Assembly: GCA_002418965.1 (NCBI GenBank)
Contig: DIFD01000015.1
Span: 215,088-279,087 of the forward strand
Reading direction: 5' to 3'
From: Peptococcaceae bacterium UBA5757
Lineage (GTDB): Bacteria; Bacillota; Dehalobacteriia; UBA4068
Length of the DNA stretch: 64,000 bases
Made by a program: the position numbers and the translations under genes. Shown in pieces: positions 1 through 19,319 of the stretch; the stretch's first letter is position 1; each line of letters opens with the position of its first letter. The notes beneath the pieces are model-generated. The model saw only the letters and a program-made list of their open reading frames with translations. It did no database searches and was not told the DNA's origin.

Positions 1-2304
1 TTGTCCTGGCAATTACTGGTTTTTAGCTTAGCAGCTTTTTTGTTGGCAAGAGCAGAGCTTTTGGGAGGGCTATATCCATTTGCGCCGGCTGTTTTGGCAG
101 CTTTGATCGTTTGCTACCGCGCACGGGGGCTCATTTATGTAATACCGATTTTGGTCGGGTTCATTACGGTGATGAGCGGGAGCGAGATTTTGCTTTATGC
201 GATCATCTGCGCATTGCTCGGAATGTTTTTTACATTTTATCCTGTTGACGGTAAACGTTTATGGTATGTTCTTCCTACTGTGGTACTGGCTACCGTTTTG
301 GTTTGTAAGGGGTTGGTGGCCGTGTTTTGGGGAGCTGTCAGTTATGAAATATTTATCGCTTTGGTGGAGGGTGCATTTGCGGCCGGGTTATCCCTGGTAT
401 TTATGGTCGTTTTGAATGCCTTCCGGCGTTTTGATCTGACCAAGAGGTTTTCTTCTGATGAAACGATTTGCCTGTTTGTAATTGGCATGGGCGTCATCTG
501 CGGCATGAGCAATTGGACAATCGCAGGAATCTCTATTCAAGCTGTTGCCAGTTGTTTTTTGATCCTGGCGGTTGCTTATTTAGGGGGAGGCGGAGTCGGA
601 GCGGCTATGGGCACCATTATGGGAATTGTTCCCAGCCTTTCCACGATGATTGCGCCATCCGTAATTGCAACCTATGCGTTTTCCGGCTTGCTTGCGGGTA
701 TCTTCAGTGGTTTCGGCCGTTTTGGGACGGTTTTGGGATTCTTTTTTGGCAATATGATTCTTTCTTTATACCTGTTATCCGGAATGCAGATCACATCCGC
801 CTTAAGCGTAACAGCAATTTCCGCTTTGATCTTTTTGCTCATTCCCAATTCTATCTATCGTAGTTTAAGAGCAGCATTTATCAACAGCGGGGTAAAAACA
901 GCTAAAGAAGACAAAAATGAACGGATTTTACGGTATTTTCTTCGCCGAATTCATCAGGCAGGCGTTGCCTACCATGATTTAAGTAAATCTTTAACCCAGA
1001 TCTTAGGACAAAATGAAAAAGAGATGGTAGAAGACAACCTGAACGATGTCTTAAAACAATTCCACCGCCAGCTTTGTACGGAATGCTCTTTGAAAGATGT
1101 CTGCTGGCGTAGGGACTACGCCAATACCGTTAAAAGCGTGGTAGAGGTTTTTAATACCGTAGAAAAAAAAGGGTACGCTACCCGAAACGATATCCCGGAG
1201 ATATTAGCCAAGCGTTGTCCGCATGTGAAAGAATTAACTGTGATCGTCAATTGTCTTTATGAGATCTTTTGCCGCAACAATTATTGGAAGACCAAACAGG
1301 AATCGAGTGCCAATCTGTTGTCTGTACAAATAGACGGAGTTTCACAAATTTTTGACGGCATTGTCAAAGAGATCAATGAGTACAACGACGAGCGCTTGCT
1401 GTTGGAAACAGAACTGCGTTATGCCCTGCAAAAAAGGGAGCTCAATATTGATTCAATCGGCATTTCTTCCTTAAAAGAAAAAAGTATCAATGTTTGGGTA
1501 CAGTTCCAGGATTGCCCGGGTGAAATTTATTGCCGGGAAGCTTTAGAAGACGAAGTCAGTTCGCTTTTAGGACATGATTATTATGTCTGTGATTCTACCT
1601 GCAGCGGCAATTGCGGCGAGCGTTGTACTTATAAATTATTGGAACAAGGCGCTAATTGCATCCATATCGGGAAAGCTCAGCTTGCCAAAGACGGGAAAGG
1701 TATTTGTGGGGACAGCGGCGTCAGTGTCCTCTTGGAAGAAGGAAAACAACTGCTTATTATCAGTGACGGTATGGGAATCGGGCAAAAAGCTGCAACAGAA
1801 TCAGACGCTGCCGTTTCTTTGTTAATTAAATTATTGGAATTGGGGTTTAGCGAAGAAACGGCTATAGATACGGTAAATTCTGCTTTTATGCTGCGGGGTA
1901 ATGAGGATAGTTTTGTTACGCTGGATCTATGCTTTGTGGATCTGATTAACGGCAATACACAGTTTATTAAAACGGGCGGCGCACCCAGCTTTATCAAACG
2001 AGGCCGGGATGTTAAAATTATCCAAGGTTCCAGCTTGCCGGTCGGCATGTTACATACGGTACAAAAGGATGTTTTTTATGAGGCCATGCAGGCCGGAGAC
2101 ATGGTTATTCTGGCTAGCGACGGGTTATGGGATATGGATACCAACCATGATTTAAAATGGTTGCAACGGACATTGTCCGCATGCAAGGCAGACACGCCCC
2201 AAGAAATGGCCGAATACATCTTAGAAAAAGTCGTGAATATTAGCGGAGGGAAAATTAAGGATGATATTACCGTTTTGGTTGCACAAATGGAGAAAATTGC
2301 CTAA
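1..2304 (+). CDS. spoIIE: Stage II sporulation protein E (PP2C-type phosphatase). N-terminal multi-TM region plus C-terminal PP2C domain. The 5' end is probably truncated by the window edge.
   Basis: ORF translation shows ~10 TM helices followed by ...GKGICGDSGVSVLLEEGKQLLIISDGMGIGQKAATESDAA..., a PP2C/SpoIIE signature. At 767 aa it is ~50-60 aa shorter than typical SpoIIE, and the window begins in-frame. Confidence 0.88.
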   Translation: MSWQLLVFSLAAFLLARAELLGGLYPFAPAVLAALIVCYRARGLIYVIPILVGFITVMSGSEILLYAIICALLGMFFTFYPVDGKRLWYVLPTVVLATVLVCKGLVAVFWGAVSYEIFIALVEGAFAAGLSLVFMVVLNAFRRFDLTKRFSSDETICLFVIGMGVICGMSNWTIAGISIQAVASCFLILAVAYLGGGGVGAAMGTIMGIVPSLSTMIAPSVIATYAFSGLLAGIFSGFGRFGTVLGFFFGNMILSLYLLSGMQITSALSVTAISALIFLLIPNSIYRSLRAAFINSGVKTAKEDKNERILRYFLRRIHQAGVAYHDLSKSLTQILGQNEKEMVEDNLNDVLKQFHRQLCTECSLKDVCWRRDYANTVKSVVEVFNTVEKKGYATRNDIPEILAKRCPHVKELTVIVNCLYEIFCRNNYWKTKQESSANLLSVQIDGVSQIFDGIVKEINEYNDERLLLETELRYALQKRELNIDSIGISSLKEKSINVWVQFQDCPGEIYCREALEDEVSSLLGHDYYVCDSTCSGNCGERCTYKLLEQGANCIHIGKAQLAKDGKGICGDSGVSVLLEEGKQLLIISDGMGIGQKAATESDAAVSLLIKLLELGFSEETAIDTVNSAFMLRGNEDSFVTLDLCFVDLINGNTQFIKTGGAPSFIKRGRDVKIIQGSSLPVGMLHTVQKDVFYEAMQAGDMVILASDGLWDMDTNHDLKWLQRTLSACKADTPQEMAEYILEKVVNISGGKIKDDITVLVAQMEKIA

Positions 2305-2447
2305 ATAGAAAGCCGGGGCGGGTTTGCTTCTCTGGCGTCAACAGGGGCAGGATTTTTAAATATTAAGGCGAAAAGGCATACTATGGTTAACATTTGCTGA
2401 TTCGCCTTTTTTATTGTGGAAGATCTTATTTTGACTGGGGTTTATAA

Positions 2448-3866
2448 ATGAAAAAAAAACAATTGGCTTCTTTAGCTGCCTGGCAAAAAAAGGTGGCAAA
2501 CTATTGCCGCAATCATGATCTCGTCCAAAATGGCGATCATATTTTGCTCGCTATTTCCGGAGGCGTTGATTCCATGTCGCTTTTGCATTTGTTTGCAGGA
2601 AGCCGGGCAGGTTGGCAGGTGTCGCTTTCAGTAGCCTATTTTAATCATCAATTGAGACCGCAAAGTGAGCTGGAAGGCAAATTTGTGGCGGATGCCTGTA
2701 AATGTCTGCAAATCCCCTTCTATTGCGGAAGCGCCGATATTAAGGCGCTTTCAGATGGGAAAAATGTAGAAGAAATAGCACGCAAGCACCGCTATGCGTT
2801 TCTTTTTTCCTGCATGAATCAAATTGGGGCAAATAAAATCGCGACTGCGCATCATCTCGACGATCAAGCAGAAACTGTGCTGTTACACATGTTGCGTGGC
2901 TGCGGGTTGGAAGGGTTAGCGGCTATTGCCCCAAAAGAAGGGGCTTTGCTCCGTCCTTTGCTATTCCTGTCCAAGGAGGAGTTGATTGCCTATAATGAGC
3001 TCTCCGGGATCGGTTATTGCCAGGATGAAAGTAACTTCTCTTTGCAGTATACCCGCAACCAAATCCGGGGAGACTTGATTCCCCGGCTAAAAAAAGAGTA
3101 TAATCCGCAAGTTGAGCACGCTTTAGCAAAAATGGCCGAAGTCTGCCGTGTTGATCAGGAATATATGACAAATCAGGCAAGAGCATCTTTTAGAAAAGTT
3201 TGGATTGTTGAAGAGCAGGCTTTGGGAGAAGTGTTTTTTAGCCTGCCGCAAGCCTTGCAGTCCCGTCTGGTGCAAATGGCTTTTGGGTTTGTAAGTGGGC
3301 AAAGTAATAATGCTTTGAGTTTTGAACAGATTGAAGCCGTGCTTCGGTTAAAAGAAGAGCAGCAAGCGCCGTTACCCAAAGATATTCGCGTTTATGTACG
3401 CTATGGCAAGTTATATTTTAACAAGAAGAAACCTGACTTACCAACATGGGAAGGTGAAGTTACGCTTTTTTGGGGGGAAAAGCTACCCATTGGAGAAAGC
3501 GGCTGGTACTATGAAATTCAGGATACTCCGATCCAAGAGCTTAAAAAGAAAGAGTATGCAGACAATTTCCCTTTTATAAAAGGAAATCCGTTGATTTTGC
3601 CGAAATCTTTTTTGCCGGATTTGAGTTTTCGCACCAAAAAGGATGGCGATAAAATTAATCTGCCGTATCTGGGGGGCAGCAAAAAATTAAAGGATATTTT
3701 TATCGACGCCAAGATAAAACCGGCATGGCGGAAAAATTGGCCCCTTTTGGTTCATCAGGGGGAAATTATTGCTGTACCATTACTGCAAACGGCAGTCGGT
3801 ATTTGTAACGGAACCGATGTGAATCAGCTCTATTTATATTTTTACCCACCGCAAAAATTTTGCTAA
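2448..3866 (+). CDS. tilS: tRNA(Ile)-lysidine synthetase
   Basis: PP-loop motif ISGGVDSMSLLHLF. 472 aa. Conserved position immediately upstream of ftsH. Confidence 0.9.
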   Translation: MKKKQLASLAAWQKKVANYCRNHDLVQNGDHILLAISGGVDSMSLLHLFAGSRAGWQVSLSVAYFNHQLRPQSELEGKFVADACKCLQIPFYCGSADIKALSDGKNVEEIARKHRYAFLFSCMNQIGANKIATAHHLDDQAETVLLHMLRGCGLEGLAAIAPKEGALLRPLLFLSKEELIAYNELSGIGYCQDESNFSLQYTRNQIRGDLIPRLKKEYNPQVEHALAKMAEVCRVDQEYMTNQARASFRKVWIVEEQALGEVFFSLPQALQSRLVQMAFGFVSGQSNNALSFEQIEAVLRLKEEQQAPLPKDIRVYVRYGKLYFNKKKPDLPTWEGEVTLFWGEKLPIGESGWYYEIQDTPIQELKKKEYADNFPFIKGNPLILPKSFLPDLSFRTKKDGDKINLPYLGGSKKLKDIFIDAKIKPAWRKNWPLLVHQGEIIAVPLLQTAVGICNGTDVNQLYLYFYPPQKFC

Positions 3867-3911
3867 AAATTGGTTATGCTATAAAGAGATTTTTTAAGAT
3901 TTCTTTTTATT

Positions 3912-3940
3912 TTGAAAAGTGCAGGTTTTTATGATATGAT
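3912..3940 (+). promoter_or_regulatory. Putative sigmaA promoter for ftsH: TTGAAA, 17 nt spacer, TATGAT.
   Basis: Hexamers read directly at 3912-3917 and 3935-3940 with a 17 nt spacer, ~60 nt upstream of the ftsH TTG start. Confidence 0.4.
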
Positions 3941-3999
3941 TAAATAATATTGATCTCAAAACGTACTTTTTCACTCCAATCCGGAAGGGGGATTTTTGT

Positions 4000-5922
4000 T
4001 TGAATCGTTTGATGAAAAACATGACAATTTTTCTGCTCATCGTTTTACTTGCCGTATCCTTTTATACCTTCGGTAATAAAGGGGCGGAACAGCCTTTAGA
4101 GATGACGTACAGTGAATTTATCGGCGCTGTTGAGCAAGGAAAAGTTGTCAGTGTTGATATAGCCGGTGATACGAATCGGTATATAATCACAGGTACCTTA
4201 TCAACGGGGGCAGTCTTTAGTACCACCGTTTTTCCAGACACCAATATTGCGGATGTGTTAACCCAATACAATGTTAAAATAACGTATGATGAAGTACCGG
4301 CGCCTCCGTGGTGGACGACGGTCTTATCTACTTTGTTGCCAATGCTCCTCATTGTCGGTTTATTAATCTTTTTGATGCAGCAAGGACAGGGCGGCAACGG
4401 GAAAGTCATGCAATTCGGCAAGAGCCGGGCCAAACTTCATACCGACGACCGTAAGAAAGTGACGTTTGAAGATGTCGCCGGTGTGGATGAAGTCAAAGAA
4501 GAATTGAATGAGGTCGTGGAGTTTTTAAAAGAACCGCGTAAATTTAATGCCCTGGGGGCTAGAATCCCCAAAGGCGTTTTGCTTTTCGGCGCTCCCGGAA
4601 CAGGGAAAACATTATTGGCAAGAGCAGTTGCCGGAGAAGCCAATGTGCCTTTTTTCTCGATCAGCGGTTCGGACTTTGTGGAAATGTTCGTCGGGGTTGG
4701 TGCCTCGCGTGTACGTGACCTTTTTGAACAGGCGAAGAAACATGCGCCTTGCATTATCTTTATTGATGAAATCGACGCGGTCGGCCGTCAACGCGGAGCG
4801 GGCTTAGGCGGCGGACACGATGAGAGAGAGCAAACTTTAAATCAATTGCTCGTAGAAATGGACGGTTTTGCTCCCAATGAAGGAATTATCGTCATCGCAG
4901 CTACCAACAGACCGGATATTTTAGACCCCGCTTTGCTGCGTCCGGGGCGTTTTGACCGCGAAATTGTTGTGGATACACCGGATGTGAACGGCCGTCGCCA
5001 GATTTTAGAAGTGCATATTAAAGGCAAGCCGCTCGATCCCGGTATCGATTTGGATGTTGTCGCGCGCCGCACACCCGGTTTTACGGGGGCCGATTTGGCC
5101 AATCTGATCAACGAGGCTGCCCTGTTAGCCGCGCGACATAATAAGAAAAGAATCGATATGGAAGAAATGGAACAGGCTGCCGAGCGTGTGATTGCCGGTC
5201 CCGAAAAGAAATCACGTGTGATCAGCGACAGAGAAAAGAAGATTGTTGCCTATCATGAAGCAGGGCATTCCGTTGTTTCTTATTATCTCAAGAATGTCGA
5301 TCCTTTGCATAAGGTTTCTATCATTCCGCGTGGGCGTGCCGGCGGGTATACATTGCTTTTACCGAAAGAAGACCGCAATTATGCCACCAAATCCCAGATG
5401 GAAGACGAGCTTGTGGTATTGTTGGGCGGCAGAATGTCCGAAGTGATTGTTTTGACCGATATCAGCACCGGAGCGCAAAACGATCTGGAGCGCTCGACAG
5501 GAATGGTACGGCAGATGATCACGCGCTACGGTATGAGCGAAGAGATGGGGCCTTTGACGTTTGGCAGACAGCATGAAACAGTTTTTTTAGGCCGCGACTT
5601 TTCACAGGAGCGCAACTACAGTGAAGCCATTGCGTATGCCATTGATAAAGAAGCTCGTACCATGATTGATAAGGCCTATCAGACGGCCAGAAAGATCCTG
5701 ACCGAGCATATTGATAAGCTTCATCTGGTGGCGGCTGCGCTGATGGAAAAAGAAACGTTGACAGCTGAGGAATTCTATCAATTGATGAAGGATCCAAATG
5801 GTCAAGCTCCGGAACAGGTTGTTTCGGATATAATCACAAAGACAGAATCAAGCGCTGCGCCGGAAATTAATTTGTCTTATCAAGATAAAACGGATCCGAA
5901 CCGTGATCCTTTTAATTCATAA
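4000..5922 (+). CDS. ftsH: ATP-dependent zinc metalloprotease FtsH
   Basis: N-terminus [18 protein letters not shown] Walker motif GPPGTGKT, and Zn-binding HEAGH. TTG start with GGAAGGGGGA SD 6 nt upstream. Confidence 0.93.
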
Positions 5923-13189: not shown

Positions 13190-13547
13190 TTGCCGAGTAA
13201 GTTGGATGAACGCAGGCAGAATGCCGAAAGGCTCTGTCGGAGGAAAGTCCGGGCTCCATAGGGCAGGGTGCTGGCTAACGGCCAGTGAGGGTGACCTTAA
13301 GGATAGTGCCACAGAAAAAAACCGCCCGGGGGAAACCCCTCGGGTAAGGGTGCAACGGTGCGGTAAGAGCGCACCAGCGGTTGGGAGACCAGCCGGCTAG
13401 GTAAACCCCACCTGGAGCAAGACCGAATAGGGAAAGAAAGGTGGCCCGCCTCTTTTCCGGGTAAGGTTGCTAAAGGCTGCCGGCAACGGTAGCCGTAGAT
13501 AGATGTTCATTGAAGACAGAACCCGGCTTATAGATTTGCTCGGCAAT
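13190..13547 (+). ncRNA. rnpB: RNase P RNA (bacterial, type A-like architecture)
   Basis: Universal motifs GGAAAGTCCGGGCTCCATAGGGCA, ...GGTAAGGGTGCAACGGTGCGGTAAGAGCGCACC..., ACAGAACCCGGCTTA. P1 pairs ttgccgag(13190)/ctcggcaa(13546). Own extended -10 promoter tgGTATAAT at 13164-13172. Confidence 0.9.
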
Positions 13548-13582: not shown

Positions 13583-13963
13583 ATGCAGGAATTGTGTGCA
13601 AAAATGAAAGAATATCTCAAAATGACGGATCCGTTACCCTATGAAGCGTTTGTGGAATATTACCAATCCGTCCTGGATTATCTGCAGAAAAAATATCAGG
13701 ATATGACCCAGGATGAAATGGTAGAAGCCAAGACGATCTGCAATCTTTTAAACGCTAATGCTGTGGAGCGTGCAGCTAAAAAGGATGCCAATTACAAGAG
13801 ATTTCGTAAAATGGCCGAAAAATCCGCTTTTTGGCAGGATGCCATTGAAGTGAACCTATTAAAACAAGGCTTTACAAAAAAATCCTTGGAAGAAAAAGAA
13901 AAAGAGATCTGGCAAACGGTTTTTGAACCAAAAGAACAGAACCAGGAAGAAAAATTGGGATAA
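13583..13963 (+). CDS. Hypothetical acidic protein (126 aa)
   Basis: Clean ORF with GGAGG SD. No recognisable domain. Confidence 0.5.
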   Translation: MQELCAKMKEYLKMTDPLPYEAFVEYYQSVLDYLQKKYQDMTQDEMVEAKTICNLLNANAVERAAKKDANYKRFRKMAEKSAFWQDAIEVNLLKQGFTKKSLEEKEKEIWQTVFEPKEQNQEEKLG

Positions 13964-14044
13964 ATTAAAGCCTAAATCAATAATTTCCTTATAAATCAGG
14001 CACAATAAAAATACATATTGCCTGATGTTTGTAAGGAAAACTTT

Positions 14045-14980
14045 ATGTCAAAAAGAACACTGGGATTTATTGCGGCATTTTTAGCCGCATCTATCTTTGG
14101 TCTGACATTTTTATTTATTAAGATCGGTTTGCGCTATTCGGACCCCGTTCATTTGCTTGCCATGCGTTTTTTATTGGGCATGATTGTTTTTGAAGTTTTG
14201 CGCCGTCGCAAATGGATTAAGCTTAGTTTGACGCTTCGCAATTGGACGCCGCTTTTGCTGATGGTTTTATTTGAACCGGTTTGCTATTTTAGCTTTGAAA
14301 CCTATGCGCTGCTTTTTTCCACCAGCACGGAAGGTGGCATCTTTTCATCCTTTACACCGGTGATGACGACAATTTTTGCAGCTGTCTTCTTGCGTGAGTA
14401 TATCCTTCCAAGACAGATTCTGTTTTTAGGCCTATCTGTTTTTGGTATTTTTTTTATTATGTTTTTGGACGGTTTTGTTTTGTCTCACGGAGTCGGTGGC
14501 AAACTGCTTTGGATCAGTGCCGTGGTTTCTGCCGCTTTGTTTGCCGTTTGTAGCCGGTATTTTTCCCGCCGCTATAATCCCTGGGATATTACTTATATGA
14601 TGATGGTTGCAGGCGCTGTCTTTTTTAACAGCTGGTCTGTTGGCCGTCATCTGTTTCAAGGCAACTTATTAAATTATTTTACACCGCTCATCTCCGGCCC
14701 GTTTCTTCTTTCGGTGGCATTTTTGGGGATAATGGCATCCCTTGTCGGCATATTTTTTTATAATTTCGGGCTGTCGTGCCTGCCGTCTTATCAGATGTCC
14801 GTTACGGCTTCTTTAACGACAGTAGTTGCAATTTTTGCCGGCGGGGTCTTTTTGAACGAGGTAATCTCCTGGTATCATATGGTGGGCGCCATCATCATTA
14901 CCATTGGGGTAACGGGGATCAATTTAAATGCTGAAACCCGGCATAAAATCTTATCATCGCGATATATTAGAATCCGGTAA
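14045..14980 (+). CDS. EamA/DMT-superfamily permease (10 TM)
   Basis: Two EamA-like halves of hydrophobic helices. Start at MSKRTLGFIAAFLAASIFGL; the ORF is open from 14018. Confidence 0.75.
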   Translation: MSKRTLGFIAAFLAASIFGLTFLFIKIGLRYSDPVHLLAMRFLLGMIVFEVLRRRKWIKLSLTLRNWTPLLLMVLFEPVCYFSFETYALLFSTSTEGGIFSSFTPVMTTIFAAVFLREYILPRQILFLGLSVFGIFFIMFLDGFVLSHGVGGKLLWISAVVSAALFAVCSRYFSRRYNPWDITYMMMVAGAVFFNSWSVGRHLFQGNLLNYFTPLISGPFLLSVAFLGIMASLVGIFFYNFGLSCLPSYQMSVTASLTTVVAIFAGGVFLNEVISWYHMVGAIIITIGVTGINLNAETRHKILSSRYIRIR

Positions 14981-14995
14981 ATAAGGAGTGTAACC

Positions 14996-17137
14996 ATGCG
15001 TTTACGCCGTATGCCGCAGGCAAAAGAAATTGTGGCAAACAGTGATCTGGTTTTTAGCCCCAAAAATATCGCAAACTTGCGGGGTAATTGGGAAAAAATC
15101 TTTGCCAATGATTCCCCTATTTACCTGGAAGTGGGAATGGGCAGGGGTAAATGGATCACGGCAGAAGCGGCTAAAAATCCTAAGATCAATTATATCGGGT
15201 TGGAAATGCGGGAAGAAATGATCTTTCAGGCATTGGAACGCTTGCAGGGAAAAATCCCGCCTAATATACGTTTTTTATGGGTGGATGCTTCTAATCTGCC
15301 GCTTTTGTTTACCCGTGGTGAGGTCGACGGGATTTATCTTCACTTTTCCGACCCGTGGCCTAAATTGCGTCATGCCAAAAGGCGTTTGACCCACCCCTTA
15401 TTTTTAAAAGATTATGATTTTGTCTTAAAACCTAAAGGTCAATTAAATTTTAAAACAGATAATCAGGATTTTTTTGATTGGTCGTTAACCCAATTTGCCA
15501 AAACATATCAGCGGGGATGGCGCCAACTGGCTTTAGACCGCAATCTCCCGTTAGAAGAAGGCCAGGCAATAACAGAATACGAGAAGCGCTTTCGTCGCAT
15601 GAATCAGCCGATTTATTTTTGCAGTATGCAAAAGGAGGACAGACACATGTACTATGTCAGCACCCGGGGAAATTATGAGCCGCAAACCGCTGCTGAAGCT
15701 ATCTGTTTGGGGATGGTCCCGGGCGGAGGGCTTTTTGTACCGCAATCATTTCCGAACTATTTGCCCAAAGGAATTGCGACGATGACTTATCAGGAGCTGG
15801 CTTGCGATATTCTGGGGCTTTATTTAGATGATTATGACAAGAAAGAAATCAAACAGATTGTTTGGGATTCTTACAACAACGAACGGTTCGATGATGTCAT
15901 TGCGCCCTGTGTGACGGTGGGGGATTTGGAACTTTTAGAATTATGGCATGGCCCCACGGCTGCCTTTAAGGATATGGCTTTACAGATTATGCCTCGCTTA
16001 CTGAAAGCTGCTATCGCTAAAACAGAAAAAGAAAAAGAAGTGGTGATTTTGGTCGCCACCTCCGGAGATACGGGTAAAGCCGCCTTGGAAGGTTTCAAGA
16101 ACATGGAAGGGATCAAGATCATCGTCTTTTATCCCTGCGGTGGCGTCAGCCGGATTCAGGAACTGCAGATGCTGACGACGGATGGTCACAATACTTATGT
16201 CGTAGGTGTGGACGGCAATTTTGATGATTGCCAAAACGCTGTTAAGGCTGTCTTTGCCAACGAGGCCTTAAAAAAGGAAATGGATGCGGCGCAAAAAGAA
16301 TTTTCATCGGCCAATTCCATCAACTGGGGACGCTTGTTGCCGCAAATCGTTTATTATTATTATGCTTACGGGCAGATGGTTGCCAAAGGGAAAATCAAAG
16401 AGGCTCAGGAAATCGATGTGACGGTTCCTACCGGCAACTTTGGCAATATCTTGGCGGCCTATTATGCACGCCGGATGGGATTGCCTATCCACAAGCTGAT
16501 TTGCGCGTCCAACGAAAATAAAGTACTGACCGATGTGATTAAAAATGGTACCTATGACCGCCGCAGACCTTTTTACCAAACGGATAGTCCTTCCATGGAT
16601 ATTCTGATTTCCAGTAATTTTGAACGCTTTATTTATGAAATTTTTGATCGGGATGGCAAGGCCACGGCAGATGCCTTTCAGAAATTACAGGCGGAGGGAT
16701 TTTTTGCTGTTTCCGACGATCAGTCCCAAAAATGGGGTCAATTGATTTACGGTGATTTTGCGGATCGCAAAGAAGCGGCTCGTTTCATTGGGTCAGCCTA
16801 CCGGGATTATGGTTATGTGATGGACCCACATACCGGAGTGGCCGTGGCCGTAGCAAATAAATACCGACAGCAAAACGGGACAGAGCAGCGTCCCATGTTG
16901 GTCGTTTCCACGGCAAGCCCGTATAAGTTCCCTAAAGCAGTTCTTTTGGCCCTTGGTGTGGGTGAAAAGGAATTGGAGCAGATGGACGATCATACCATGC
17001 TTACCCTTTTGCAACAAAAAAGCGGGATTCCCGTTCATCGTGCCGTAGCCAACATCGAGCAAAAACCCGTTTTACACCAGATGAAGATCAAAAAAGAAGC
17101 GGTCGCCGAGACCATTAGAAATATTCTGTCTTTGTAG
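14996..17137 (+). CDS. trmB/thrC: In-frame fusion ORF, 713 aa. The N-terminal ~217 aa is tRNA (guanine46-N7)-methyltransferase TrmB and the C-terminal ~496 aa is threonine synthase ThrC. An internal AAAGGAGG SD sits before the ThrC ATG at 15648.
   Basis: TrmB motifs EVGMGRGKWI and YLHFSDPWPK. The TrmB C-terminus ...NQPIYFCSMQKEDRH runs with no stop codon into MYYVSTRG..., a ThrC N-terminus with the PLP-lysine motif AAFKDMAL. Confidence 0.8.
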   Translation: MRLRRMPQAKEIVANSDLVFSPKNIANLRGNWEKIFANDSPIYLEVGMGRGKWITAEAAKNPKINYIGLEMREEMIFQALERLQGKIPPNIRFLWVDASNLPLLFTRGEVDGIYLHFSDPWPKLRHAKRRLTHPLFLKDYDFVLKPKGQLNFKTDNQDFFDWSLTQFAKTYQRGWRQLALDRNLPLEEGQAITEYEKRFRRMNQPIYFCSMQKEDRHMYYVSTRGNYEPQTAAEAICLGMVPGGGLFVPQSFPNYLPKGIATMTYQELACDILGLYLDDYDKKEIKQIVWDSYNNERFDDVIAPCVTVGDLELLELWHGPTAAFKDMALQIMPRLLKAAIAKTEKEKEVVILVATSGDTGKAALEGFKNMEGIKIIVFYPCGGVSRIQELQMLTTDGHNTYVVGVDGNFDDCQNAVKAVFANEALKKEMDAAQKEFSSANSINWGRLLPQIVYYYYAYGQMVAKGKIKEAQEIDVTVPTGNFGNILAAYYARRMGLPIHKLICASNENKVLTDVIKNGTYDRRRPFYQTDSPSMDILISSNFERFIYEIFDRDGKATADAFQKLQAEGFFAVSDDQSQKWGQLIYGDFADRKEAARFIGSAYRDYGYVMDPHTGVAVAVANKYRQQNGTEQRPMLVVSTASPYKFPKAVLLALGVGEKELEQMDDHTMLTLLQQKSGIPVHRAVANIEQKPVLHQMKIKKEAVAETIRNILSL

Positions 17138-17195: not shown

Positions 17196-17227
17196 AAAAA
17201 AGAACCTTTTTTAAGGTTCTTTTTCTT
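17196..17227 (+). terminator. Rho-independent terminator after thrC
   Basis: aaaaagaacctt tttt aaggttcttttt. Confidence 0.6.
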
Positions 17228-18160: not shown

Positions 18161-18497
18161 TTTTAGTAAATCCAAGCTAAGCTTCAGCAAATGATATCTT
18201 GATAAATTCTAATTGATATGAACAAATTGTATATTGACACAATCAAACGGAATGCTTAGTACCATAAAAACCAACATAAATGTTGGTTTTTATTGCGTTG
18301 AGGCAGGTAAAGAAAGATGCCAAAGTAAACCCTGGCGGTTTTTGAGTCTTTAAGCTGACAAGCACTATTGGGAAAAAGATGATATAATAAATAATAATTT
18401 ATGTTAGCCCAGCCCGAGTCGGTAGATCAAGATTATTCATTTTGATCTGACTATTATTTATATACTTTCCAAAATTATGATAGGGGTGATTATTGAA

Positions 18498-19319
18498 GTG
18501 AAAAAGAGAAGTATTTTTTTGCTGATTTTTTTAATTCTAATAGGCAGTACGCTTTGTGGATGTAAGGCGACTTCAACGCAATCTTTTAATGATACTGAGC
18601 AAAATACCGCCGCATCACAGGATGTGTTATATCAGGTATCAACACTTGATGCACTGATGCAAGGGGTATATGATGGTGAATTGAGCCTTGGTCAATTGAC
18701 CAGCCACGGTAATTTTGGTATCGGCACTTTTGATGGATTGGACGGCGAAATGGTGGTTTTGGATGGACAAGTTTATCAAGTGCCGGCGGACGGCAAAGTG
18801 ATTAAGAAGGATAGCGCTACATTAACGCCGTTTGCGATGGTAACCGACTTTGAAACAGATAGCCAAGTTGAGATTGCGGATATAAAAGACTAAGCACAAT
18901 TGCAAGCGGTTCTTAATGACCTTTTGCCTAGTCAGAACATGTTTTATGCGATCAAAGTCGAAGGGACGTTTGCCTATATAAAAACACGCAGTGTCCAAAA
19001 ACAAACGGAACCCTATCCGCCGCTTGTCGAGGTTACCAGTGCGCAGACTGTCTTTGAGTTCAATGATGTTGAGGGTACTTTGGTAGGTTTTTGGTGTCCT
19101 GAATATTCCGACGGCATTAATCTGCCTGGTTACCATTTGCATTTTATATCGGATGATTTTACGATGGGCGGCCATCTTTTGGAGTGTTCCATGAAAGCGG
19201 GCACAATCTTGATTGATACGACGACTGAATACCATATGCTGCTGCCCGAGAACGAACATTTTGCTCAAACAAATTTTAATAGTGTCCCCGAAGAGGATAA
19301 ACAAAAGGCAGAAAAATAG
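18498..19319 (+). pseudogene. alsD: Alpha-acetolactate decarboxylase (AlsD/BudA) with lipoprotein-like signal peptide, interrupted by an in-frame TAA at 18891-18893.
   Basis: Two same-frame ORFs, 18477..18893 and 18900..19319, are both homologous to ALDC (LYQVSTLDALMQGVYDG..., ...GYHLHFISDD...). They are separated only by TAA. The likely start is GTG 18498 after AGGGGTGA. Confidence 0.7.

Follow-up and report, generated by a model that had tools for sequence, protein, structure and literature searches.

The trmB-thrC locus

The DNA analysed here is a stretch of 64,000 nucleotides (nt) from Peptococcaceae bacterium UBA5757 (contig DIFD01000015.1, positions 215,088 to 279,087), referred to below as the window. 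In it, trmB, encoding the tRNA (guanine46-N7)-methyltransferase, and thrC, encoding threonine synthase, are read as one open reading frame (ORF). The ORF listing and the raw sequence both give a single ORF at 14996-17137 on the forward strand, with 713 codons and zero in-frame stops, in which residues 1-217 are the TrmB part and residues 218-713 the ThrC part. The translation across the junction is ...NQPIYFCSMQKEDRH, followed directly by MYYVSTRG. The fusion has a calculated mass of 81.2 kDa, against 25.8 kDa for its TrmB part and 55.4 kDa for ThrC on its own. The features of the gene are as follows.

14983-14988, forward strand: Shine-Dalgarno (SD) sequence of the trmB start, AAGGAG, 7 nt 5' of the ATG at 14996, read from the sequence
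14996-15646, forward strand: TrmB part, amino acids (aa) 1-217, comprising the entire tRNA (guanine46-N7)-methyltransferase domain and then the linker KEDRH
15631-15638, forward strand: internal SD, AAAGGAGG, inside the linker codons CAA AAG GAG GAC
15647-15649, forward strand: in-frame ATG, codon 218, the apparent ancestral thrC start, aligning with the initiator Met of unfused ThrC
15647-17137, forward strand: ThrC part, aa 218-713, an entire threonine synthase, with its TAG stop at 17135-17137
17197-17224, forward strand: terminator-like hairpin followed by a T-run, 60 nt past the stop codon, from a terminator pattern scan

A preliminary description of this DNA, made from the sequence alone, had already placed TrmB and ThrC in one in-frame 713 aa ORF, which was borne out by the ORF listing, the raw sequence and the Pfam and NCBIfam matches. 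The internal ATG and the SD motif AAAGGAGG that it described are both present, but the ATG was given as 15648, one base away from its correct position, and the distance between the two is 8 nt instead of 7. The natural C-terminus of TrmB lies a few residues ahead of M218, so that the linker consists of about five residues, KEDRH.

Two complete enzyme domains in one protein

The TrmB half is a complete domain with the fold of solved TrmB proteins. It passed the NCBIfam equivalog test for TrmB (TIGR00091, aa 16-213, 152.6 bits against a cut-off of 112.65) and also matched NF001080 (147.2 bits, cut-off 132) and the Pfam family Methyltransf_4 (137 bits). Residues 1-211 align with residues 1-209 of the 213-residue Bacillus subtilis TrmB structures 7nyb and 2fca, and in Foldseek the TrmB half of an AlphaFold model of the fusion matched 7nzi with a target-normalised TM-score of 0.92 and a root mean square deviation of 1.7 A. 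The S-adenosylmethionine (SAM)-binding Rossmann motif (E-x-G-x-G-x-G), the acidic residue after beta-2, DPWPK and TEYE are present and align with B. subtilis TrmB. Across 33 fused proteins, residues E45, G47, G49, R50, G51, E70, H126, R129-R130 and T154-D155 were invariant, as were the motifs D119-P120-W121-P122 and T193-E-Y-E196. The m7G46-forming activity of this half has presumably been retained.

The window TrmB therefore resembles the stand-alone B. subtilis protein (YtmQ/TrmB; 2fca, 7nyb) in its end-to-end alignment, in the SAM-binding and DPWPK motifs and in its fold (TM-score of about 0.9), but it has no stop codon of its own and continues into ThrC about five residues past the natural C-terminus. 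Joining of TrmB to another protein in one polypeptide is also seen in the families NF002421 (bifunctional PrmC/TrmB) and NF010719 (long TrmB). The window protein is a member of neither (39.8 bits against a cut-off of 567 and 90.3 against 402 bits, respectively), and the partner of TrmB in NF002421 is instead a release-factor methyltransferase.

The ThrC half passed the corresponding equivalog test (TIGR00260, aa 218-713, 253-254 bits against a cut-off of 167.1) and contains the Thr_synth_N, PALP and THR4_C domains (PF14821, PF00291 and PF24857), each above its gathering score. Residues 218-699 align with residues 6-483 of the Streptococcus pneumoniae ThrC structure 8g1y, with 42% identity, and the ThrC half of the AlphaFold model matched 8g1y with a target-normalised TM-score of 0.93. 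The lysine that binds pyridoxal phosphate (PLP), K325 in HGPTAAFKDMAL (GPTAAFKD), aligns with 8g1y and was invariant across the 33 fused proteins. The domain order, the PLP lysine motif and the fold are therefore those of long-form threonine synthases such as 8g1y and yeast Thr4 (1kl7), from which the window protein differs in bearing a 217-residue N-terminal TrmB. A role of this half in threonine synthesis is suggested by the equivalog hidden Markov model and by its resemblance to threonine synthases of known structure. A tblastn search of the 64-kb window for a thrB-like gene was negative, and the regions flanking related loci contained none; hom was not among the genes searched for.

The AlphaFold model of the whole protein, built on the 33 fused sequences, had a mean predicted local distance difference test score (pLDDT) of 89 and a predicted TM-score (pTM) of 0.73. 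The last strand of TrmB was modelled at residues 207-213 and the first of ThrC at 220-222, and the junction between them (residues 211-220) had a pLDDT of 82, with no low-confidence or disordered linker. There was no solved chain spanning TrmB and ThrC together among the Foldseek matches.

ThrC was also found fused to other partners among the representatives at 50% identity. These were a C-terminal GHMP kinase (homoserine-kinase/ThrB-like), a shikimate-kinase-like domain and sigma-70 region 2, in proteins of about 780 aa (P0261, P0313, P0366), about 675 aa (P0269, P0365) and 704 aa (P0369). In a further protein, P0003 (781 aa, ENA), the PALP region of ThrC is apparently doubled, with two PALP stretches; the duplication may be real or may come from a chimeric assembly.

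The fusion in other assemblies and other proteins

The identical 713-aa protein was found on 7 contigs, among them JGI 3300002219 and ENA ERZ27315046. The closest available relative of the gene is L087 (ENA ERZ21831104 ctg76207l, 2018-4167), with 80% nucleotide identity over the whole gene. Its junction is in frame (...FCSLQKEENH, then MYYVSTRG), the reading frame around it being intact over residues 85-357, and the neighbours of the gene match those of the window, with an EamA gene upstream (1064-2002) and genes for acetolactate decarboxylase and a major facilitator superfamily (MFS) transporter downstream. Gene calling broke the L087 fusion gene into at least six small ORFs.

A search of 5.8 billion proteins gave 43 further fused clusters, with lengths of 704-754 aa and 46-52% identity to the window protein. 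The whole query was aligned in all but three of them, and in those three 96-98% of it. Many of these clusters were recovered repeatedly at full length; the listed members of P0040 and P0046, for example, are mostly 731 aa long. Because the identical protein lies on 7 contigs, the L087 junction is in frame and dozens of fused clusters exist, the fusion is no assembly error.

The closest relative thus has no stop codon at the junction, and the suggestion of a genuine bifunctional protein in the preliminary description held as far as the encoded two-enzyme protein is concerned. The same description called the fusion unusual. This is true in the sense that the two enzymes have no common pathway, but with 43 other fused clusters it is not a one-off.

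The architecture is already present in sequence databases, where the names cover only one of the two enzymes. NCBI lists HIU10832.1 as 'threonine synthase', and the UniRef name of A0A9D1KY80 is 'tRNA (guanine-N(7)-)-methyltransferase'. With such names, genome-scale inventories of metabolism or of tRNA modification in these uncultured Bacillota can overlook one of the two functions. The architecture is not described in the searchable literature, in which there was no paper joining TrmB with threonine synthase and fusion, or m7G46 with threonine synthase. The fusion goes unmentioned in a comparative paper on the Dehalobacteriia.

Split trmB-thrC pairs and the origin of the fusion

The closest unfused proteins to the window ThrC are P0033 (62% identical) and P0044 (60%), and on their contigs (L088 and L090) a separate trmB of 208-210 aa lies directly 5' of thrC, in another reading frame. 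The trmB genes of L088 and L090 end in ...QPIYFCRLANPDK-TAA or ...QPIYFCRVAKS-TAA, followed by a spacer of 20-31 nt with AGGAGG. The best match of the window TrmB is the L088 TrmB (52%, 231 bits), and the C-terminal motif QPIYFC is common to all four TrmBs compared (window, L087, L088 and L090). As TrmB is too short, and too evenly about 45% identical, to yield a phylogeny of its own, the evidence used for this half was the best hit (L088 TrmB).

Further split pairs were found by genome and metagenome scans:

L004: TAA, then AGGAGG
L008: TAATG overlap
L011: ATGA overlap
L083: TAG stop, 3 nt, then ATG
L084: TAA, then AGGAGG
L003 (Dehalobacterium sp. AnMBR.bin330), at about 4630-4664: same frame, TAA ten codons 5' of the thrC ATG
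L098 (P0074; GCA_964261755.1), 2434-4497: same frame, TAG abutting the ATG (...PIAKEQA, stop, MEYISTRG)

The L003 pair is one point mutation away from fusion. A metagenome scan with a degenerate DNA pattern spanning the junction (linkers of 21-31 aa) gave four loci, two fused and two split. In the GTDB genomes, 76 of the 80 thrC loci among the matches listed (Halanaerobiales, Oscillospiraceae and others) had no trmB within 4 kb, in a scan that did not include the window's own genome and whose listed matches were mostly unrelated thrC genes.

Fused and split loci have a common synteny, consisting of TrmK, NIF3, ..., an ORF of unknown function of about 115-128 aa, trmB/thrC, zf_Tbcl, CSD and uvrB. 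The split pairs, which come from metagenome-assembled genomes (MAGs) of related Bacillota (L088, L090, L003, L004, L008, L011, L083, L084 and L098), are like the window locus in their genes, gene order, upstream ORF, synteny and AGGAGG. They differ from it in that their trmB stop (TAA, TAG or TGA) is present, 0-31 nt 5' of the thrC ATG or overlapping it, usually with thrC in another frame. Because unfused relatives hold separate genes at the syntenic locus, the ancestral state appears to have been a tightly packed trmB-thrC pair, from which the window lineage lost the stop and most of the spacer. The linker KEDRH would then be a former ribosome-binding-site region that is now read through, since the spacer of L088 and L090 holds AGGAGG at the same place. 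The preliminary description had considered a recent loss of the trmB stop codon. The comparison of orthologous trmB 3' ends, with TAA and a spacer in L088 and L090, supports the loss, but 'recent' has to be qualified, as the fusion is older than a divergence that now stands at about 80% nucleotide identity.

More than one change at the trmB/thrC boundary

A neighbour-joining tree of 130 ThrC sequences was bootstrapped with 200 replicates. The window ThrC grouped with the split-pair ThrCs (P0033 and P0044), outside a 40-member fused clade from Peptococcaceae-like MAGs, in 200/200 bootstraps. Other fused proteins also seldom or never joined the large clade (P0016 in 0%, P0021 in 12% and P0025 in 3% of bootstraps), and two unfused proteins, P0074 (L098) and P0080, were nested in it. 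Because the window ThrC was excluded from the fused clade in every bootstrap, the trmB/thrC boundary has changed state more than once. Among representatives clustered at 50%, a single protein, P0043, stood for the whole fused family, which gave no lineage count.

Within the large clade, the fusion is stable. When the ThrC portion of the Ca. Avidehalobacter gallistercoris protein (NCBI lineage Peptococcaceae incertae sedis) served alone as the query, 38 of the 41 best-scoring other proteins were fused, at ThrC identities from 92% down to about 59%, and the linkers of the clade, 21 to 47 aa long, were always in frame. Members such as HIU10832.1 (UniProt A0A9D1KY80, 725 aa) have the architecture of the window protein and keep the internal Met and SD. 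They differ from it in their 46-52% identity, in their longer linkers and in a junction of the ...E-V-K-x-M type. As it is phylogenetically apart from the window ThrC, the large clade probably arose by a fusion event other than that of the window.

L098, nested in this clade, differs from a fusion by a single TAG. This may represent fission by a nonsense mutation, or possibly UAG read-through. UAG is decoded as pyrrolysine in some Peptococcaceae-like bacteria.

The probable internal thrC start

The internal AAAGGAGG is predicted to pair with the 3' tail of the 16S rRNA at -11.8 kcal/mol. Of the roughly 2,000 positions for which the ORF was scored, none paired more strongly (mean -2.9, standard deviation 2.7), and the motif is far beyond a chance match. 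In 41 of the 43 fused clusters the ThrC Met is at the exact position, and the remaining two have it one residue away. An SD-like motif lies 5-9 nt upstream of it in 10/10 fused junctions for which DNA was available, with pairing energies of -6.5 to -11.8 kcal/mol, similar to those of the split pairs (-5.9 to -12.8 kcal/mol). Tested against each gene's own background at nine loci, with L087 left out as a close relative of the window, the SD at fused junctions gave a Fisher combined p of 1.4e-8, a value that is optimistic, as the large-clade loci are not phylogenetically independent.

The sequence CAAAAGGAGGA is identical in the window and L087, with 5 changes in the next 9 nt, and in unfused relatives AGGAGG occupies the matching place in the spacer between the genes. 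In 8/8 fused junctions the Glu of the SD core is encoded by GAG, while in six of those eight genes GAG accounts for 14-34% of the Glu codons (26% in the window gene). Because GAG is used throughout despite the bias towards GAA, and CAAAAGGAGGA is kept in L087, it appears to be the nucleotide motif that is conserved and not the amino acids. In L098, where the in-frame TAG directly precedes the ATG, thrC would be translatable only from its own start signals. As the Met, the SD motif and its GAG codon are all conserved, internal initiation probably continues in the fused genes and gives a free 55-kDa ThrC besides the fusion, in agreement with the free ThrC proposed in the preliminary description.

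Two other devices were considered at this site and rejected. A second thrC promoter inside trmB would have to be a weak 9/12 match at 15386-15415, which was no better than the shuffled background. A programmed frameshift at CAA-AAG before the SD, ending TrmB, had no canonical slippery heptamer and no comparative support.

Internal in-frame starts are known from other genes. They have been mapped by retapamulin-assisted profiling (bioRxiv 10.1101/520783), and the gene for the type I-D CRISPR large subunit also yields its small subunit (bioRxiv 10.1101/2020.04.18.045682). In two-polypeptide phage endolysins an internal in-frame start gives a shorter protein (PMC9430671), and Vibrio cholerae Fha is another gene-in-gene case with such a start (PMC13389060). 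Like these, the window gene has a conserved in-frame SD and ATG inside its ORF, with long and short products predicted to have a common C-terminus. Unlike them, the short product, here a predicted one, would be a whole ancestral enzyme to which the long form adds an unrelated enzyme, and the internal start would be a retained ancestral gene start instead of a newly evolved one. The locus can therefore be placed, as far as its sequence goes, within two known kinds, the fusion of adjacent genes and the gene-in-gene internal start.

Interpretation of the fusion

We consider it probable that the window carries a genuine trmB-thrC fusion gene, derived from an adjacent pair, from which additional free ThrC is likely to be made at the old start. 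The ancestor would have had trmB with thrC 0-31 nt behind it, and the trmB stop and most of the spacer would have been lost in the window lineage. The gene would be part of one transcription unit, probably running from before the EamA gene upstream to the hairpin at 17197-17224, with two SD-plus-ATG starts in one frame. Translation from 14996 would give the 81-kDa TrmB-ThrC protein, arranged head-to-tail, which would be the sole source of TrmB as no free TrmB would be made, and translation from 15647 would give the free 55-kDa ThrC. Both activities are expected to be retained. The fusion is most likely tolerated, and perhaps slightly beneficial, as a by-product of genes packed tightly in an operon, and does not reflect a common pathway.

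Several points weigh against this interpretation, besides the optimistic SD p-values mentioned above. The fusion copy of L087 has many frameshifts, with 27 gap positions relative to the window, which would point either to errors in a long-read assembly or to a decaying gene. The neighbour-joining tree is compatible with several fusions as well as with several fissions. The folding energy of the mRNA at the internal ATG is average for the ORF (40th percentile), with no signature of openness. In the window lineage, for which there is one close relative (L087) to compare, the SD and ATG could also be inherited and simply undecayed.

It could be that only the 81-kDa product is made, and that the internal AAAGGAGG and ATG are relics, or are kept for the amino acids they encode or for SD-induced pausing that aids folding. 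The short product is a predicted one, the mRNA at the internal ATG is not unusually open, and ribosomes elongating from trmB would occlude the internal site. The window fusion is moreover known from itself and one relative, perhaps leaving little time for decay. However, the older clade, reaching down to about 59% ThrC identity, keeps the Met nearly throughout, and the SD persists in its free-running linkers. The two outlier clusters have moved the Met by one residue without losing it, the use of GAG over the synonymous GAA fits conservation of a nucleotide motif, and the thrC of L098 could be translated only from these signals. We therefore regard production of the fusion alone as rather unlikely.

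A second possibility is that the fusion was selected for its own sake. The locus would then be a conserved gene with two products, whose TrmB functions only while attached to a ThrC dimer. Fusion of the pair is seen at two or more phylogenetically separate points (possibly as many as five), and the separate ThrC start has been kept. If this were the case, the fusion could link m7G46 methylation or SAM status to threonine synthesis, and long and short forms in heterodimers could fix the TrmB:ThrC stoichiometry. The repeated occurrence and long retention of the fusion leave a little room for such a selected functional coupling, but we give it only a small chance compared with a fusion that arose through tight packing and is tolerated.

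A still smaller chance falls to an adaptive coupling in which the SAM-binding TrmB modulates ThrC, or the tether to the ThrC dimer sets the dosage, stability or localisation of TrmB. Besides the phylogenetically separate occurrences, such a coupling would be consistent with the persistence of the fusion throughout a clade of about 40 clusters, although the linkers have undergone many indels, each of them in frame, and with the conserved adjacency of the pair to a third gene of unknown function. The modelled junction, which was predicted to be ordered (pLDDT 82, pTM 0.73), points the same way. An analogue exists in plants, where threonine synthase is activated by SAM (solved structure 2c2b, which was among the Foldseek matches). 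On the other hand, no pathway connects m7G46 formation with threonine synthesis, and no literature linking the two functions was found. The catalytic motifs of TrmB are all invariant, as in a working tRNA methyltransferase and not a sensor domain, and split versions, which are common, are clearly viable. Fusion is an easy mutational step where the genes are so tightly spaced (overlaps of the ATGA or TAATG type, or one in-frame stop), and ThrC is also fused to other neighbours. That a sequencing or assembly error removed a stop or introduced a frameshift, with trmB and thrC truly separate, has practically no chance of being correct: split pairs do occur in relatives, two of which (L003 and L098) are a single in-frame stop away from fusion, but the 7 contigs include both JGI and ENA records, the L087 junction is in frame despite 20% nucleotide divergence, and dozens of fused clusters were recovered many times over.

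What looked suspiciously like a missing stop codon is real biology. The orthologous locus offers a natural series, which leads from genes that overlap, via genes parted by one in-frame stop, to full fusion and illustrates how operon neighbours become multidomain proteins and how downstream start signals can survive inside the new ORF. If both products are made, the gene is a simple case in which to study dual-product genes of anaerobic Bacillota.

Genes and RNAs around the fusion

The other features near the fusion gene are as follows.

13194-13546, forward strand: RNase P RNA, bacterial class A, 310.6 bits, full length
13583-13963, forward strand: 126-aa ORF of unknown function, found directly 5' of trmB(-thrC) in nearly all pair-bearing loci
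14018-14980, forward strand: EamA-family transporter gene (ORF listing, Pfam EamA), ending 15 nt before the fusion ORF
18477-19319, forward strand: alpha-acetolactate decarboxylase gene with an in-frame TAA at 18891-18893 (...ADIKD, stop, AQLQAVLN...)

The 126-aa ORF had no Pfam or NCBIfam family match. Homologues with 30-52% identity were detected by tblastn just 5' of trmB in L004, L008, L011, L085, L086 and L088-L098. The unknown ORF (about 115-128 aa), trmB and thrC form a conserved three-gene cluster, whether the pair is fused or split. The window and L087 are the only loci in which an EamA gene separates the unknown ORF from trmB, and in the window this gene is probably co-transcribed with the fusion ORF. 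EamA-family proteins include threonine and homoserine exporters.

No T-box or riboswitch was found near the fusion gene when the whole window was searched with Rfam at gathering thresholds, the RNase P RNA being the sole match. The JGI record has a gene of 44 aa that overlaps with this RNA and is probably spurious. The split in the alpha-acetolactate decarboxylase gene is common to the JGI assembly, the ENA assembly and L087, and the gene is likely a pseudogene.

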